Of a stretch of DNA of 64,000 nucleotides, positions 27,555 through 52,539 are shown one piece after another. Source of the DNA: Candidatus Latescibacterota bacterium (lineage in GTDB: Bacteria > Latescibacterota > UBA2968 > UBA8231); assembly GCA_963422735.1 (NCBI GenBank), contig OY730476.1, positions 3,072,001 through 3,136,000 of the forward strand, given 5' to 3'. A program made the translations under genes and the position numbers. How positions within the stretch are numbered: position 1 is the first letter of the stretch; every line of letters starts with the position of its first letter. The notes below the pieces were generated by a model. It did no database searches. It saw only the letters and a program-made list of their open reading frames with translations, and had not been told where the DNA came from.

Positions 27555-27688
27555 TGTCATGCTGACGAAGTATCTTTTAACCTGTACGTTGATGGATGCA
27601 GCAGATTCTTCGCTTCACCGCGCCTTGTCCTTAGGCGTAAACAAGGCCGGGTGAAGCTGGCGCGACCTCCGCTTCGCTCAGAATGACA
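27555..27688. repeat. REP/MITE-like palindromic repeat (TGTCAT...ATGACA ends) containing a nested mini-element
   Basis: left arm TGTCATGCTGACGAAGTATCT is an imperfect inverted repeat of right arm AGATTCTTCG...CTCAGAATGACA. Confidence 0.75.
27612..27665 (+). mobile_element. palindromic mini-element, copy A (54 bp)
   Basis: GCTTCACCGCGCCTTGTCC...GGGTGAAGCTGGCGCGA; both ends shared with copies at 38549-38596 and 39909-39955. Confidence 0.75.
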
Positions 27689-27769
27689 GGGCAATTAGGG
27701 CAATTAAGGTATATTATACAAAATACGAAAATGCTTCGAGCTTCACCGACCCTTTAGGGTTAACTACCC

Positions 27770-32863: not shown

Positions 32864-33304
32864 GTGGAGATGTGCAACACACCTCGTCTCGCCATGTGCG
32901 ATCAAGACGCCGCTGACTGTTTGGCCGTCAAGTCGGAGCTTGCAAAAAAATGCCGAGACGCTGACGCTGGGAAACCCGAAACCGTTGCCAGAATAGTGTG
33001 TCGCGAGCTAGAGAGTTGGTATTCTGGGGATCTGGCCGCGTTTGAGAGTGGCCTCGGCACTTAGGGGCTGGTTCGCCGTTACGGGAACGCGAGCAAACAC
33101 AGGGTTCCCGATAGAATCCACTATCCGGCTATCGAATTGAGGAAGATCACCCGTAACGCCTATCAGAAGGTGTCGGGATCAAGGTCTATCGGTTCGATGA
33201 TGTCGCTGGGCTCGAACAAGTCTCATAGCTTCCGGGTGTTTATCGGAGGCGTTCAACAGGCAATTAGGGGTGCGATAGAGCCTAATCCATCTTATCCGGA
33301 ATAG
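32864..33304 (+). pseudogene. DUF4276-family (TOPRIM-like) remnant
   Basis: DQD..DC..K, RI.CRELESW..GD..A, then past an in-frame TAG (33062-33064) YQKVSGSR and N.S.SF..F; N-terminus missing. Confidence 0.7.
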
Positions 33305-33385
33305 CTACTTTTGCCGCATCTTCAGTTTTAATTCTTACTGCGACAAGGCCCATCTGAAGCCAACCAAAACGAGGCCGCTGTCTGC

Positions 33386-34543
33386 CTATTCGCCGAGTTT
33401 AACGATCAGGTCCTTGCCGAACTCAATCCCGGCGACTCGGCAAGCCATCTTAATTTGCTCCCTTTTCTGTGACGTAGAGCTGTTTGTCCCTAGCCACCAC
33501 CCGCCGGATAGGGAAGCGGCCTGTGTCTCGGCTAGCTTGGGAGCGTTGGGGTAGAGCGAATCCCTGTCGCGTGCAAGGTACTGCCTCGAATGCCCCTTCA
33601 AACGTGGTTCCAGCTCCTCGTAGAACCGGGCATCCGTTTGTAAAAGCCGCTCGAAGACGCCCACCAACAATTCCTTGCCATTGCTGAACTGTTCCGTTTG
33701 CCCGCGGAAGATAAACGAATACTCTTTCCCCAGTCGTCCCTTGGGGGGTTCGGAAATTGCTTGGGAACGCTCCAGTGTTGGTTCGGCAGGAACCTCAGAG
33801 GCCGCCCTCATCTTCTGAGAATGCCTTGGCGGGGACGCGGTGGGGGTTTGGATATGGACAGCCTCCGCCTTGAAATCTTGACTCCAAATAAACTCCTCCA
33901 CGCGGCGAAGCTCCGGTCGCACACCGCTGATCCGTTCCACTTCCCTGCAGAACCAGTCCTTGAGGACCTCGGGCGGCTCGCGGAGAAATTCGGCCCACAC
34001 CGCCTCGAAGTTCGCAGCCGCTTCGCTCTGCTGTCGAAAAGCGTAGTAGTCGTCATGGGCGCGTCGGTGCGCCTCCCCGGACCGCACGGCCTCAAAGGCG
34101 AGATAGCGGCTTATTCTCTCGGCACTTTCAGCCGTGTCGCCATCAACCAAGTCCACCGCGGCAAAGCGCCGCTCTTGGTAGCTACCCTGTCCTGCTGGAA
34201 AGAAGAACCCCCAAGAACGCCCATCAGTCAGCACAGCGAGCGGAACTCCCTGCCGAAAGCAGTAATCAAAGAGTTGCTCTTCGCCTTTTGCGTTTGCCTT
34301 GCCGACATCTTTGACCTCAACCAAGACGGACGGCTTGTCGGGCGGATGACAGAGTGCGTAATCGACTTTGCGTCTCTTGATGGGAAACTCGGGAATCACC
34401 ACTTTAGGGTCCCAGACGTTCCAACCCAGTGTATTCAGGAGACGCATTACCACGCTGCGAGAGATTTGAGCTTCGTTGGCAAAGTCTCCCCGCGTCAAAC
34501 TGTCGCGAATTTCCTCGATTTGAAGGGTCAGACTTTCTGCCAT
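33386..34543 (-). CDS. HsdR_N-type PD-(D/E)xK nuclease fused to a C-terminal SeqA-like domain
   Basis: NEA, L..LGW, V.PE, VDYAL, VEVK, QL..Y, LTDG..W; Pro-rich linker; GWWLGTNSST.QK tail. Confidence 0.72.
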   Translation of the reverse strand: MAESLTLQIEEIRDSLTRGDFANEAQISRSVVMRLLNTLGWNVWDPKVVIPEFPIKRRKVDYALCHPPDKPSVLVEVKDVGKANAKGEEQLFDYCFRQGVPLAVLTDGRSWGFFFPAGQGSYQERRFAAVDLVDGDTAESAERISRYLAFEAVRSGEAHRRAHDDYYAFRQQSEAAANFEAVWAEFLREPPEVLKDWFCREVERISGVRPELRRVEEFIWSQDFKAEAVHIQTPTASPPRHSQKMRAASEVPAEPTLERSQAISEPPKGRLGKEYSFIFRGQTEQFSNGKELLVGVFERLLQTDARFYEELEPRLKGHSRQYLARDRDSLYPNAPKLAETQAASLSGGWWLGTNSSTSQKREQIKMACRVAGIEFGKDLIVKLGE

Positions 34544-35278: not shown

Positions 35279-36033
35279 TCAACGCAACAACAACATTTTT
35301 CGCATTTTCCGCGTCTCCACCGGCGTCCCGATCCGCAGGCGGTACAGATACATGCCGCTGGCTAGTATGCCCCCCGCGTCGTTGCGGCCGTCCCAAGTTA
35401 GCCGATAGCGTCCTGCGGCCCGGATGCCTCGGACTAAGATGGCGACCTGCTGGCCGGCGATAGTGTACACGCTATCGGATCTAAGGGAGAATTGAAGGGC
35501 ATGTAGAAGCGGTTGCCGTAGTTGCCGTAGTAGATACTGCGCTCGTTGGCTCCGGCCTGCATCCCAAAATCTATCAGGCCTTGGGCGATGTAGTTGCCCA
35601 AGGCCGCGCACGGGGTTGCCGTCGGTGTAGTCTGTGGAGTGAAAGGTCGCACTATACCCCAACTCGCTTATGAGCCGGTTGATTTGGGAGAATGACAGTA
35701 TCCAGCCCGGCGAAAGGCGAAAGCGGAATCTCAGGAGGCGAGAGGCCGCATAGCTCATGGCTTCGCGTTGGGCAGCCTCCACGTCGTCGGGGCGGGGTAC
35801 GCCGGAAAAAGAGCAGGTGAAGCTGCCTACTGTTTTGTCCAGCAAGTAAGTCTGCTCGGGTCCGTCGCTGTACACCGCCCAAGCGTCGTATAGGGCTATG
35901 CTGGTGAGGTTGCGGGCGCGAGCGAAGTCGTCGTGGATGGACGCTAAGAGGACCTCGTTCCACTGGCGTGCCACCGAGCCGGAACAGCCGACAGGGCGAA
36001 GAGCACCCAAGCGATCAACTTTGTCCGTAGCAT
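35279..36033 (-). pseudogene. internally deleted DUF6851/vanadium haloperoxidase-like secreted protein with C-terminal FlgD/T9SS-like domain
   Basis: signal peptide from ATG 36033 out of frame with SVARQWNEVLL; second frame ALGNYIA; abrupt jump to WDGRND.G..LASGMYLYRL. Confidence 0.7.
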
Positions 36034-38034: not shown

Positions 38035-39705
38035 ATGGCTACGGAGCGCTTCACCTCGACGTTAAGTCGAGACAAACCGAATTTTCTGTGGATTTCATTT
38101 GAGGATACCAATCCCCGGTACGGGTGCTACGGCGATTCGGTGGCGCGTACGCCCACGTTGGATCGCCTCGCCGCGCAAGGGTGCCGCTGGACGCGCTGCT
38201 TCTCCACGGCCGGCGTCTGCGCCCCGGCCCGGTCGGCCATCATCACCGGCATGTACTCGATCTCCATCGGCACTCACCATATGCGCACGACTCACGCCAA
38301 CCGTGCCACTCCAGAGATGCCCACGCCGTATTCAGCCGTTGTGCCACACTACGTAAAGTGCTTCACAGAATACCTGCGGGCGGCAGGGTATTACTGCACT
38401 AACAACGCTAAGACCGACTACCAGTTTGAACCCCCTCAGACCGCTTGGGACGCGCTCGGCCCGCACGCCCACTGGCGCGACCGTCCCGACCCGGACCAGC
38501 CGTTTTTCGCAGTCTTCAACCCCACGCGCACCCACGAAAGCGGCATGTTCACGCCAGCTTCACCCTGCCTTCAGGCAGGACAAGGCGCGGTGAAGCGGCC
38601 CGAGAAGTGCCCTGAGCCGGAGTTCGACCCGGATGCCATCCCTCTACCGCCCTATTTCCCCGATACCCCCTTAGTACGCCAAGCCATGGTGCGGATGTAC
38701 ACGCATATTTCGCATAGCGATCAAGAGCTTGCCCAGCTCCTGCAACAACTCGACGAAGACGGTTTGTCCAAGAATACGTACGTCTTTCACTGGAGCGATC
38801 ACGGCCCGCTGCCGCGCGGCAAGCGCTGGCCGTACGACGCGGGCATTCACGTGCCCCTGATCGTCTGCGGCCCAGACGTGGAAGCGGGGCGAGTATGCGA
38901 GGACTTGGTAAGCACCGTCGATCTAGGTCCTACGGTACTCTCGCTCGCGGGGATTGAAGTGCCCGCCCACATGCAAGGCCGTGCGTTTTTGGGCCGCCAA
39001 GCTCAACCGCCGAGGGAGTACATATACGCGAGCCGCGACCGGCATGACGAGGCGTACGACATGGTGCGGGCCGTGCGCGACCGCCGCTTTAAGTACATCC
39101 GCAACTATCGGCCAGATCTTCCCTACTTGGCGTGGATCCCCTATCGCAATCGGCACCCCATTGTGCAGGAAATGTGGCGCTTGCACTTGGCCGACGAACT
39201 GGACGAGACGCAGGCGGTCATGTTCCAGTACCCGAGGCCGGTCGAAGAGCTATACGACACCGAAGCCGATCCGCACGAGATCAACAACTTGGCGGCCAGT
39301 CCCCAGTACCAGCCAGAGCGGGATCGCCTGCGCGGAGCCTTGGACGAATGGCTGCGAGAAGTAGGCGACATGGGCCGAATGGCGGAAAGCGACATGGTGC
39401 GGCAGTGGTATCCCAATGGCCAACAGCCGCAGACCGCCCCGCCGGTGTGTGTGCCCATTTGCGCCGATAGCCTTGGGATTGAGCCAGCGCTGAAAGGCGG
39501 TACATTTCGGGGGCCGCTACTAGTGCAACTCCACTGTGCCACGCAGGGTGCTTCTATGGCGTATGCCATGGACGACCAGCCGCACTGGCACCTCTACACC
39601 GAGCCGTTGCCCATGGAAGTTGGGACGACCTCCTTGCGGGCCAAGGCGATCCGCATTGGATACCGGGAGAGCCAAGAGACCCATGCGACCTTTGTCGTAG
39701 AGTGA
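38035..39705 (+). CDS. sulfatase with C-terminal FN3/chitobiase-like domain and a 16-codon element insertion
   Basis: PNFLWISFED, CAPAR, SDHG, ELYD...DP.E; C-terminal TQGAS.AY...W.LY..P...AKAIRIGY. Confidence 0.92.
   Translation: MATERFTSTLSRDKPNFLWISFEDTNPRYGCYGDSVARTPTLDRLAAQGCRWTRCFSTAGVCAPARSAIITGMYSISIGTHHMRTTHANRATPEMPTPYSAVVPHYVKCFTEYLRAAGYYCTNNAKTDYQFEPPQTAWDALGPHAHWRDRPDPDQPFFAVFNPTRTHESGMFTPASPCLQAGQGAVKRPEKCPEPEFDPDAIPLPPYFPDTPLVRQAMVRMYTHISHSDQELAQLLQQLDEDGLSKNTYVFHWSDHGPLPRGKRWPYDAGIHVPLIVCGPDVEAGRVCEDLVSTVDLGPTVLSLAGIEVPAHMQGRAFLGRQAQPPREYIYASRDRHDEAYDMVRAVRDRRFKYIRNYRPDLPYLAWIPYRNRHPIVQEMWRLHLADELDETQAVMFQYPRPVEELYDTEADPHEINNLAASPQYQPERDRLRGALDEWLREVGDMGRMAESDMVRQWYPNGQQPQTAPPVCVPICADSLGIEPALKGGTFRGPLLVQLHCATQGASMAYAMDDQPHWHLYTEPLPMEVGTTSLRAKAIRIGYRESQETHATFVVE
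38549..38596 (-). mobile_element. palindromic mini-element, copy B (48 bp), inserted in frame in the sulfatase gene
   Basis: reverse complement GCTTCACCGCGCCTTGTCCTGCCTGAAGGCAGGGTGAAGCTGGCGTGA matches the intergenic copies; excision restores ATG TGG CCC GAG AAG. Confidence 0.8.
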
Positions 39706-39908: not shown

Positions 39909-39955
39909 GATTCACCGCGCCTTGTCCTGCCTAAAGGCAGGGCGAAGAGGCGCGA
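39909..39955 (+). mobile_element. palindromic mini-element, copy C (47 bp)
   Basis: GATTCACCGCGCCTTGTCCTGCCTAAAGGCAGGGCGAAGAGGCGCGA aligns end to end with copy B. Confidence 0.8.
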
Positions 39956-49307: not shown

Positions 49308-52300
49308 TCATTTGACCAACGACACCTTGCGTTCCTGCACATCATCGCCCGTTTGCAAGCGCACAACGTACACCCCACTGGCGAGCTCGCCCGCGTCCCA
49401 GTTCACCCGGTAAGTACCAGGTTTCCACCACGCCTCTACCAGCGTTTTTACTCGCTGTCCAGTCGGGCCGAAAACCTCCAGCCGCACCTTTCCGGCCCGT
49501 CCCACGCTGAAATCGATATGCACCTGACTGTTGAATGGGTTGGGATAAGGCGGATGTAGATCCGTTTTTTGCGGCGGGCCCTCCACAGCCTGTACGGCAG
49601 TGGCTGTGCCCTCTCCCATAGTCGCGCCTAAAGTCGCGGTGAAGTATGCCTTTACATAGCCATCCGTGGTCGTCACCACCACATCCAAAAAGCCGTCCCT
49701 ATCCACATCGGCTAAGGCGACATCGCTGCTGCGACCCTCCACTTCTAGGGTCCAGGCCCGGCGCAGGGTGCCTTCCTCCTGTTCCACGCAGATCAACTTG
49801 GTGCCACTGCCAAACAGAAACTCGTCGCGCCCATCGTCGTCCACATCGCCAGAGACCACATCCGTATGAGCCCGAACCCCATCGTCGAACTCCAGCAAAA
49901 CCGCGCCATCCGCCGCTTGGAACAGGCGCACCCCGTCCGCAGTCGAAGCCAGTAATTCTACGGTCCCATCGCCATTGCTGTCGCCCACTCCCATCAGCGA
50001 CTGCACTTCCGTGTTGTTGCGGTACGGGGTCTGCCATATTCGCTGTCCATCGCCGTCCAGAACGGCGTTCAAATAGCTGCAGTGCCCCCAGAGGAGTTCC
50101 GGCCGGCTGTCGCCGAATAAATTGACAACCGCCGGGAATGCATAGCCGACAAAGGAATCGCTCTCAAACAGTGGATTGAGTCCGTTGGTATATCCATAGG
50201 CCTGACGGACCACCTGCGCCGTGCCCGTGACTCCGTCGATAATGTGCAGCCGGTCGGGCCACATCACCACGATCTCCTCCAGGCCGTCGCCGTCTGTATC
50301 CCCCGCAGCGCTGGGATGGCCCCCCAGACTGCGGCCGCTGCCGTCCTCGGGCAGGGTGAAACCATTGGATTTCCAGACGATTTCGCCGCTGCGCCCATCG
50401 AGCAAAAAGCCCACTTCGCTGCCCAACTTGCCGCGCCGCAGACTGGCAAATACATCCATGTACTCGTTGCTGCGGAAATACCCAGCACTCCAGTAGGACA
50501 GGCCGCTGAAGTTCCATATAGGCATACTACCGTCAAAGCCAACGAACTCGGTCTGCCAGCGGATGGACCCATCGGCCGCAAGTGCCACCAAGCTGGCGTT
50601 GCCGCTGGCTGCCTCGCGCGCCGCCAGCACTTCCCGGCGGCCATCGCCGTCCACGTCCGCGGCGATCACTCCCCAGTGGAAGGGCGCGTTATTGGTCTGG
50701 CCGTAGCCGGGCACCTGCCATTGTGGCCGAGGGTCGCCCCCGCCCTCTCCTGGAGCTTGCAGGCACAGCACTTCCCGGGTCGCTGTCTGGACGATCACTT
50801 CCACTCGGCCATCCCCCTCCAAATCGGCTACTACCGGCGTACCGGCCGGGGTAAATGCTTGGCGACTCCACTGGTGCAGCTCCCCCGAGGCCCGCTCCAG
50901 CACCAGCGCCTGACTAGGGAGCCCACTCCCCCTCAGATACAGCAAGGATGCCCCATCGTTCGCCGCCGCGGCCGTCTCTAAGACCATCCCGGCTGGCCCG
51001 CTCACCGACCACCGCGGTCCGATGCGTCCCGCGCTGTCGCTGCCCAAAGCGACCAGCACTTCACCGCCCCTGTCCGGCGCGAGCGCAAAGAAATCGCGTC
51101 GTCCATCTCCATCCACATCGCCGGTTGACACCGTGCGCAAACCATCGGCGGCCCCGGTGCTCACCGTCAAGGGCAACTGATTCAGCAATACCGTACTGAA
51201 GCGCCCCCGCTCGTGGCTCCAGCGTACGCTCGCCGTCCCCGCCTCCAAGGACCAGACCGCTAGCGGCGCATAGGTCGGCAGGGCTTCGCCCGTCGTGGCC
51301 GAGACGAACAACTCCAAGCGTCCGTCGCCGTCCACGTCGGCCATACCGTGCAAATGGTGCTGTGGAAAATCAAAGCTGGTCTCGCCGCTGAGCGCATCGA
51401 CGCCGACTATGTGCCACTGGCCATCGCCTTGGTCGTTGTAAATGCTGTACACCAACTCGAAGCGGCCATCGTCGTCCGCATCGACCAAGGCCTGCGGTTG
51501 GGGCCGCACCACCTTGGTCGATTGCGCTGGATCGGGCTGAATATCGCGCAGCCAGCGCAGCGTCAATTCCGTGCCGTCGTTGTCAATGACCTCGGCGTGC
51601 ATACTGAAATCGGCCATTACGCCGAATTCGGGGTACGGATCGTCGTCGATATTGGCGGCTCCGAACCAGCCGTAGTTGCGATACCCGTGGTACTGCAACT
51701 GCATCTTGGTTTCCCCGGTGGCCCCGTCGAAGACGAGGATGCGGTAGTGGGTGGCCACGACGATATCGGGCTGACCATCTACATCGACGTCAACCACGAG
51801 GACATTGGGATCCCAAGTATTGGTAAAGAACTCGGTCTCCCACACTACCCGAGGTTCGCCGTTGTCGTACGCGAGCAGTTGGCCTTGCTTGGGCTCGGCC
51901 CCGCCGTCGCTGAAAGAATTTCCCATCTCAAAGTGCTGTAAGCCCGCTTCCCCGGGCAGGATCTGGGCCACTTTGAAGACATTGTCTAGCGGCATAGCTA
52001 CCTCGACGCCGCCGAGGTCAAAAATCTGCGGCCCAATCCCCCAATCCCGCCCGTAGGTGCCGATGTACCCAAGATCTACCGGGACGGCAAAGGGTAAGGC
52101 CACCGAGGCGTCACCCGCGTGTTGCTCCACTTCCACATAGCCCTCCCAGGCGGCAATGTCGTAGCGCCAGCGCTCTTGCGGCGGGTCGTGGATTTGGCCG
52201 ACCCCCGAGGCCCGGCCGCTCATCTGGCGGTCGCCGCGCAATTGCAGCCACTCGCCCGTTTGCCCGTGCGCCCCACCCGCCAGCATCAGCAATAGCAAGA

Positions 52301-52352
52301 CCATCGCCGACACATTTGCTCTACTGTCGTTGGAAAGCTGATTATAGGGCAT
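49308..52352 (-). CDS. secreted FG-GAP/VCBS repeat protein with C-terminal T9SS-like domain
   Basis: many D.DGDG..E repeats; PYPNPFN...LASGVY. Confidence 0.85.
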   Translation of the reverse strand: MPYNQLSNDSRANVSAMVLLLLMLAGGAHGQTGEWLQLRGDRQMSGRASGVGQIHDPPQERWRYDIAAWEGYVEVEQHAGDASVALPFAVPVDLGYIGTYGRDWGIGPQIFDLGGVEVAMPLDNVFKVAQILPGEAGLQHFEMGNSFSDGGAEPKQGQLLAYDNGEPRVVWETEFFTNTWDPNVLVVDVDVDGQPDIVVATHYRILVFDGATGETKMQLQYHGYRNYGWFGAANIDDDPYPEFGVMADFSMHAEVIDNDGTELTLRWLRDIQPDPAQSTKVVRPQPQALVDADDDGRFELVYSIYNDQGDGQWHIVGVDALSGETSFDFPQHHLHGMADVDGDGRLELFVSATTGEALPTYAPLAVWSLEAGTASVRWSHERGRFSTVLLNQLPLTVSTGAADGLRTVSTGDVDGDGRRDFFALAPDRGGEVLVALGSDSAGRIGPRWSVSGPAGMVLETAAAANDGASLLYLRGSGLPSQALVLERASGELHQWSRQAFTPAGTPVVADLEGDGRVEVIVQTATREVLCLQAPGEGGGDPRPQWQVPGYGQTNNAPFHWGVIAADVDGDGRREVLAAREAASGNASLVALAADGSIRWQTEFVGFDGSMPIWNFSGLSYWSAGYFRSNEYMDVFASLRRGKLGSEVGFLLDGRSGEIVWKSNGFTLPEDGSGRSLGGHPSAAGDTDGDGLEEIVVMWPDRLHIIDGVTGTAQVVRQAYGYTNGLNPLFESDSFVGYAFPAVVNLFGDSRPELLWGHCSYLNAVLDGDGQRIWQTPYRNNTEVQSLMGVGDSNGDGTVELLASTADGVRLFQAADGAVLLEFDDGVRAHTDVVSGDVDDDGRDEFLFGSGTKLICVEQEEGTLRRAWTLEVEGRSSDVALADVDRDGFLDVVVTTTDGYVKAYFTATLGATMGEGTATAVQAVEGPPQKTDLHPPYPNPFNSQVHIDFSVGRAGKVRLEVFGPTGQRVKTLVEAWWKPGTYRVNWDAGELASGVYVVRLQTGDDVQERKVSLVK

Positions 52353-52539
52353 AGCATTTCTTCCGTATAGTCATGAAGCTGCAATTCCAAGGACCAAAAA
52401 CCATGCAAGTCAATCTGCAACAGCTCCGCCGCGATAGCTGCTTCTTTTTCTGCAGACCGAGTGTGAATCAGATGAAAAAGCCTTGGTTTTTCAATGTCGC
52501 CCGAAAGTGCATCGCTAGCTGAGGAGTCTATAGAAGCAG

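Follow-up and report, generated by a model that had tools for sequence, protein, structure and literature searches.

How does a hairpin-rich sequence of 48 bp come to lie exactly in frame inside a sulfatase gene, what kind of element is it, and what put it there? The question is raised by a window of 64,000 nucleotides, the whole stretch of DNA analyzed, from a Candidatus Latescibacterota bacterium. Two features frame it, as follows.

38035..39705, plus strand: the host gene, encoding a 556-aa sulfatase with the Pfam domains Sulfatase and SGSH_C.
38549..38596, plus strand: the 48-bp insertion, a composite of two units that adds 16 codons and cuts a Trp codon after its first base.

The closest solved relatives of the encoded protein are S1_8 sulfatases (9bb9). 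The original prediction was that the 48 bp are an in-frame insert whose removal restores M-W-P-E-K, and this is what we find. Deleting 38549-38596 from ORF 38035-39705 gives THESGMWPEK, and the site is empty in 18 of 18 congeneric orthologues (L002-L019; 89-93% protein identity). That is, none of these congeners has the 16-residue loop; 17 read ATG TGG CCN, and one (G006) reads GCA TGG CCC. Comparison of the filled allele with the 18 empty ones reveals no target duplication. Nor is the loop a property of homologues that lack the repeat: the insert peptide occurs in none of the 105 database homologues with a locatable THES motif (105 readable among 120 listed). Among the species compared, the insertion is private to the source species. 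It is not an assembly error, since contigs of runs X7 and X9 span the site ungapped with the 48 bp included, and a contig of ~90% identity from run X6 omits exactly 38549-38596. Among the listed pieces of run X12, a putative RNA run, none spans the site. The X7 contigs also omit 448, 116, and 72 bases at window positions 33265-33712, 33988-34103, and 35518-35589, respectively, which points to a close strain without these stretches.

The sulfatase gene remains under purifying selection, with pairwise dN/dS values of 0.09-0.15 against the 18 congeners. Its private changes number 17 non-synonymous to 20 synonymous; for the rest the figures are 112 to 209 (p = 0.21). The catalytic residues Cys62, Arg66, Lys126, His167, Asp255, and His256 are invariant among 53 sulfatase sequences. 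The insert begins four residues past the conserved His167. In the AlphaFold model, residues 174-188 are a low-confidence coil, in a prediction with a mean pLDDT of 66 and many other stretches also below 50. An unrelated insert of 12-14 residues lies slightly downstream of the site in P0030, P0056-P0062, P0069-P0071, P0078, P0083, and P0088. Thirteen of the homologues were counted with it, which indicates that the loop tolerates length. For the enzyme, the 48-bp insert is probably a tolerated passenger.

What is the inserted element? The 48-mer had been taken as the basic element, a reading that does not survive a search of the genome. The basic unit is 23-24 nt long and consists of a 6-bp hairpin with a TTTA or TTCA loop and a tail of 6-7 nt. 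Its consensus is (G)TC-NN-GCC-TRAA-GGC-NN-G-GTGAAG(C); read on the opposite strand, the order is the CTTCAC tail, the 6-bp stem with its TTTA or TTCA loop, and then AC. The sulfatase 48-mer is an outer unit holding an inverted inner unit within its loop, with the following parts.

38549..38555, plus strand: 5′ arm of the outer unit, a T followed by the stem half CACGCC, as read from the sequence.
38557..38582, minus strand: the inner unit, inverted in the outer loop (profile match of 40.5 bits).
38564-38579, within the inner unit: the inner stem CCTGCC/GGCAGG; the inner tail is at 38557-38563.
38570..38573, plus strand: the inner loop TTCA, where the usual TTTA would give TAG in the sulfatase frame.
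38584..38596, plus strand: 3′ arm of the outer unit, GGCGCG, with the tail GTGAAGC, as read from the sequence.

The inner hairpin, the GCTTCACC/GGTGAAGC inverted repeat, and the crossing pairing described earlier are all present in the sequence. Because an inverted copy sits inside the loop, the inner tail is complementary to the outer tail, and their pairing crosses the outer stem. The pseudoknot-like pairing thus follows from inverted nesting, which lends no support to reading it as a functional feature, and most units are single.

The two variable stem pairs covary, with 83 Watson-Crick cells versus a shuffle mean of 47 and none of 5000 shuffles reaching 83; the computation covered 64 distinct units, among which related copies inflate the counts. 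The commonest stem mismatch is a G-T wobble, found on the TTTA strand only (19 units), and this confinement implies that the unit acts in a single-stranded, strand-specific form. Unit loops also host additional units, with G022 reaching a triple nest, as well as a second small module. The latter is a tail-plus-hairpin sequence of 21-22 nt with ~16 copies, which sits in the unit loop and in the same host repeats (G000:C1:2143671, 2250907, 2904918, 3937773, 4771635, 1783550, 375279, and 333797).

Within the window, three other members of the family were located.

27612..27665, minus strand: a nested member of 54 nt, inside a REP-like palindrome at ~27603-27688.
39909..39955, minus strand: a composite member of 47 nt, intergenic.
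49621..49644, plus strand: a single 24-nt unit, in frame and antisense in the gene for an FG-GAP-repeat protein.

The first two had been put forward as further copies of the 48-mer. Related elements do lie at both places, but they are not identical to it: the one at 39909-39955 is a 47-nt variant matching at 94.6% over 37 nt, and the one at 27612-27665 is a 54-nt variant with the ends alone in common. The single unit at 49621-49644, the fourth member in the window, was absent from the earlier list. It adds 8 residues to the FG-GAP-repeat gene (ORF 49311-52370, minus strand), and its site is empty in three of the three congeners found. A degenerate unit-like sequence, weak at 18.8 bits, lies on the minus strand at 27740-27765, directly before the start of a squalene/phytoene synthase gene.

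Given its pairing, the 48-mer might be a structured RNA element, such as a pseudoknot or ribozyme, that is removed from the sulfatase mRNA or recodes it. Crossing complementarity is present, and folding z-scores of -2.1 to -2.4 lean the same way. We nevertheless find the idea hardly credible: the crossing is a product of the inverted nesting; single units, in either orientation, make up the majority; and open-frame sites retain multiples of three alone and avoid stops. Rfam has no match at the insert site; over 27000-50500 it returned one match, unrelated and below the gathering score. An HDV-like ribozyme topology was considered and dropped, as the junction between the last two arms and an Rfam match are both absent.

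Rather than being spliced out, the sulfatase insert is probably translated. Among 49 pattern matches, inner-type units have TTCA once, in the sulfatase copy, versus TTTA in 31. In the sulfatase frame a TTTA loop reads TAG, so the loop of this copy avoids a stop, which is why translation is probable. The internal insertions in the TAG-risk frame are two, in the sulfatase and prephenate dehydratase (L134) genes, and both have TTCA. A TTTA copy in that frame at the end of PspA stops PspA. TTCA is, however, common among single units, including where no stop is avoided.

How widespread is the unit? A profile search puts the count in the source genome at ~75-81. At 24 bits or more there are 75 matches versus none in the reversed genome, and at 20 bits or more 81 versus one; the former excludes chance as the origin of the family. 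One pattern search found 18 composites. Allowing one mismatch, 22 of the genus's 31 genomes carry the unit, at 1-65 copies each. Among 137 further genomes of the phylum it appears in 2, at one match each; the control gave one match. The family is thus shown to be genus-restricted and hardly seen elsewhere. An exact scan of a genome collection gave 95 matching stretches, of which 80 were listed; 78 of those 80 are in MAGs labeled Latescibacterota, Latescibacteria, or Gemmatimonadetes/-ota, 2 are chance coding matches, and none is cyanobacterial. Metagenomes gave 10 matches, 3 of them real-looking and 7 due to chance. Viral contigs held no exact match; a looser pattern found 2, both apparently chance coding matches. 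The source genome also carries very abundant heptamer arrays (GGTTAGT type; 14-mer counts above 200) and several further repeat families.

We compared 121 congener copies with the source genome and 11 source-genome sites with congeners. Filled alleles exceed their empty counterparts by 23, 24, 47, or 48 nt, and no site has a duplication; sites 189937 and 2749506 were left out of the count as not clean enough. At the ten coding sites with an empty allele, every gain is 24 or 48 bases. Eight of these insertions keep the frame open. Of the other two, one shortens PspA by a few residues, and the second truncates a protein that belongs to a paralogous family. The open-frame hosts, for all of which empty alleles exist, are the sulfatase, a beta-propeller protein, the FG-GAP gene (window 49621), an enolase-family enzyme, homocysteine methyltransferase, aldose epimerase, a 2Fe-2S protein, and prephenate dehydratase. 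Gains of 23 or 47 nt occur at five intergenic or gene-end sites (4928894, L053, L119, L135/L141, and L136), the first of which additionally has longer alleles, and one gene-start site shows gains of both 23 and 24 nt. Since gains of 23 and 47 nt occur outside reading frames, the "exactly in frame" pattern looks like a survival filter. The expectation of a tiny mobile family that enters proteins without target duplication, and that has further copies and empty alleles in relatives, is upheld.

Two sites deserve mention for their junctions. At L135 and L141, the 23-nt gain alters the last codons of a gene, presumably that for GAPDH, from KLGQ* to KLGDSPRLQA*. At a site directly upstream of a ribosome-binding site (L175 in G022, L172, and L178), there are four different left junctions and, in G022, the triple nest; the empty alleles are also hypervariable.

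The sites at which the unit lands are weakly defined; they include unique DNA, REP-like repeats, the ends of MITEs, and the unit's own loop. Insertion junctions shift by one base on either side. Altogether, 197 sites collapse to 46 contexts, and no fixed target of 4-6 nt was found in them. A weak bias is visible at -3 (T or A in 36), -2 (T in 30), -1 (G in 32), and +1 (C in 39), although the search profile itself accounts in part for positions -2 to +1. Pairing of the tail with downstream target was rejected: GCTT occurs in 6 right and 5 left flanks of the 46, without asymmetry. Replication-strand bias is not seen (41 of 81 and 29 of 58), in an assembly whose GC skew is irregular and marks no clean origin or terminus; the bias sought was one toward the lagging strand, as for IS200/IS605 elements.

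Of the 121 congener copies, 85 lie within MITE ends or REP-like repeats, and much of the copy number is therefore passive. Could all of it be? The unit may have no dedicated mover and owe its spread solely to carriage within MITEs and REPs, to gene conversion, or to template switching. At L119 and L053 the host repeat is orthologous, and the alleles differ by the unit together with one neighboring base, which is what conversion templated by a filled paralogue predicts. Against this stands the unit's occurrence with sharp ends in 46 contexts, including at least 10 unique coding sites without donor homology, and we consider purely passive spread very unlikely.

What, then, moves the unit? We tentatively propose, at somewhat less than an even chance, that an IS200/IS605-type HUH (Y1) transposase recognizes the unit hairpin and makes the new insertions in trans, with single-stranded DNA as the intermediate. 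The composite in the sulfatase gene very probably arrived as a single piece, since ~18 similar composites exist in the genome. It most likely survived because it is a multiple of three, is stop-free in its frame, and fell in a length-tolerant loop four residues past the conserved His. Afterwards, many copies very probably multiplied as passive inserts of MITEs and REPs. If an HUH transposase is indeed the mover, the unit amounts to a minimal parasite of an IS200/IS605 system, at under half the length of a terminal-only PATE (52 bp).

The argument for such a transposase begins with its ends. IS200/IS605 ends of the genus have TTTA, TTCA, or TTGA loops, and several have the CGCC/GGCG stem top of the unit. 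Hairpins with a TTTA or TTCA loop and a stem of at least 6 occur at 191 per Mb in 85 IS200/IS605 loci versus 19 per Mb genome-wide, a tenfold enrichment. TTTA and TTCA, the two loops of the unit, are each also seen at IS ends, on the strand that accommodates the unit's G-T pair. The unit hairpin resembles the IS605-type subterminal hairpins of the genus, the likeness being short: the best ungapped match to the ends of the 85 loci is 18 of 24, and no end is identical. A TnpB-domain match is found in 22 of 22 unit-positive genomes and is absent in 8 of 9 unit-negative ones (Fisher p ~1e-6, an overstatement because kin are not independent, and two of the negatives hold decayed units at L214 and L245). 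The source genome holds three Y1 fragments, and a broken Y1 gene there is followed by a hairpin and GTGAAG. At L359:1400-1850 (G000:C1 near 3716083), a frameshifted IS200-like Y1 gene with three tandem terminal hairpins adjoins a degenerate MITE end.

Other observations count against the HUH proposal. Full-length Y1 transposases were found in six of the 31 genomes, and the five genomes with the most copies are not among these six. This absence is tempered by PMC3119063, which describes strain-specific insertions of IS605 type in a genome with no TnpA left unbroken. The right ends of the IS elements have a 5′ guide, an 8-bp stem, a 4-5-nt spacer, and a terminal tetranucleotide (36 right-end-like matches), whereas the unit has a 6-bp stem and lacks this geometry. 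The proposal is weakened by the lack of a fixed 4-5-nt target and by the one-base junction shifts, which are unlike IS608-type precision; nor is a strand bias visible, as far as the irregular skew allows.

A mover acting in trans from outside the window had also been predicted, and indeed none lies next to the copies: among neighboring ORFs of the copies, a Pfam scan of 130 of 160 selected (L257-L336) matched no transposase, recombinase, or reverse transcriptase. The associated idea that copies might flank an HUH/RAYT, IS200, or GIY-YIG gene fared worse, as units occur in 0 of 20 Y1 loci and in 0 of 20 GIY-YIG loci. IS110 was rejected as mover, being matched in 10 of 31 genomes and unmatched in the source genome, G006, G018, and G001. 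RRXRR/IscB was matched in 0 of 31 genomes, with a control likewise without matches, which makes the result uninformative.

A different enzyme might do the work. In this account, a small stand-alone GIY-YIG nuclease belonging to the host REP families nicks hairpin DNA, and repair then brings in a copy of the unit from a different locus through microhomology of 1-2 nt. Of the 121 congener copies, 41 lie in CGTC-type and GTCAT(T/G)CTGAGC-type repeats. Of the 20 GIY-YIG loci fetched, 5 have these very repeats on their flanks, and the ORFs of all five are short; one-base variation of junctions is compatible with repair. However, the sole GIY-YIG match of the source genome is UvrC-sized, short ones are mostly in copy-poor genomes, and the fetched loci, as noted, lack the unit. 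Reconstructed targets, moreover, show no overall preference for hairpins, folding no better than random DNA (p = 0.31). We judge this route unlikely. The inverted repeats flanking short GIY-YIG genes are at L373:1179-1452, L376:1364-1453, L377:1753-1842, L378:1417-1749, and L379:1417-1742.

Movement through an RNA intermediate, by reverse splicing or by reverse transcription at a nick, has reportedly been proposed for the SDRs of Nostoc. The strand-specific, G-U-compatible stem of the unit would suit it, and 15 of the 31 genomes have reverse transcriptases, among them four of the five richest in copies. Yet the source genome has no reverse transcriptase match, the unit is in none of 10 fetched reverse transcriptase loci, a G-T wobble is equally permitted in DNA hairpins, and the single Rfam match in 27000-50500 is unrelated and sub-threshold. 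We regard the RNA route as quite unlikely.

Returning to the HUH transposase, a bolder form of the proposal is that a single hairpin of 23-24 nt suffices for an IS200/IS605-type enzyme whose targeting is relaxed, and that the loop of such a hairpin can hold cargo. We hold this to be possible, if on the doubtful side. If true, no smaller cargo of a defined transposase would be known, and the long-missing mover of SDR-like micro-elements would have a name. The known minimum for a transposable unit would be lowered, with a bearing on HUH-based insertion tools, and proteins would have a natural route to loops of 8 or 16 added residues. In any event, the family is a testable case for the movement of 20-30-base elements, as it offers empty/filled pairs, a strand-specific stem, and a concrete candidate enzyme, i.e., intact IS200/IS605 TnpA genes in six congeners, with ends that have the unit's loop.

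How does the unit compare with known systems? A literature search found no paper on this hairpin family within a coverage that omitted most subscription journals. The unit works like the SDR4-6 elements of Nostocaceae described by Elhai in 2008, which are said to measure 21-27 nt, to form a hairpin with compensatory changes, to insert precisely, to nest in themselves and in other repeats, and to be confined to one lineage. The unit shares these features of size, compensated hairpin, precise insertion, nesting, and single-lineage confinement. It differs in coming from a different phylum and in having no HIP1-like fixed target. It also has documented in-frame insertions with empty alleles and a hairpin resembling local IS200/IS605 ends. 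SDR5 inserts precisely into HIP1 (PMC4390886, citing Elhai 2008), and the SDR work is cited as well in PMC3116915.

PATEs and IS200/IS605 ends (PMC3119063, PMC6006769) are likewise non-coding single hairpins without terminal inverted repeats or target duplication, and the unit's loop and stem top are like those of same-genus IS605 ends. The HUH (IS200/IS605) mechanism is described in PMC6006769 and PMC8266576. The unit departs from PATEs in size, 23-24 nt versus the 52 bp given for terminal-only PATEs in PMC3119063, and in that its parent IS was not found. From IS200/IS605 ends it departs in lacking the guide and terminal-tetranucleotide geometry and a fixed target, and in junctions that vary by one base.

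With REPs and TnpA-REP, the unit shares a short unpaired tag plus hairpin and a relaxed target, as described in PMC8266576 and PMC3733652; the former has TnpA-REP cutting at a dinucleotide, and the latter describes REPs in frame within genes. Unlike REPs, the unit has a CTTCAC tail instead of a GTAG or CGTC tag, no REPIN pairing, and no RAYT gene between its copies. CGTC-type REPs are places where it inserts; it is not itself one of them. In-frame insertion into otherwise intact proteins is also a trait of Rickettsia palindromic elements (PMC3184786, PMC3733652). They are ~105-146 bp long according to a table in PMC3184786, unlike a unit of 23-24 nt whose 48-mer is a nested pair. Unlike a MITE, the unit has neither terminal inverted repeats nor target duplication.

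We file the unit as neither a PATE nor a REP, as its ends and targets are not those of PATEs and its tail is not a REP tag. The original prediction saw here a candidate for an undescribed system, which is not supported. In-frame REPs (PMC3733652) and terminal-only PATEs (PMC3119063) are precedents. So too are the Nostoc SDRs, as reportedly described in 2008. The unit family is, in our verdict, a new, genus-restricted form of the known ultra-small mobile hairpins, of SDR-, PATE-, or REP-like kind.
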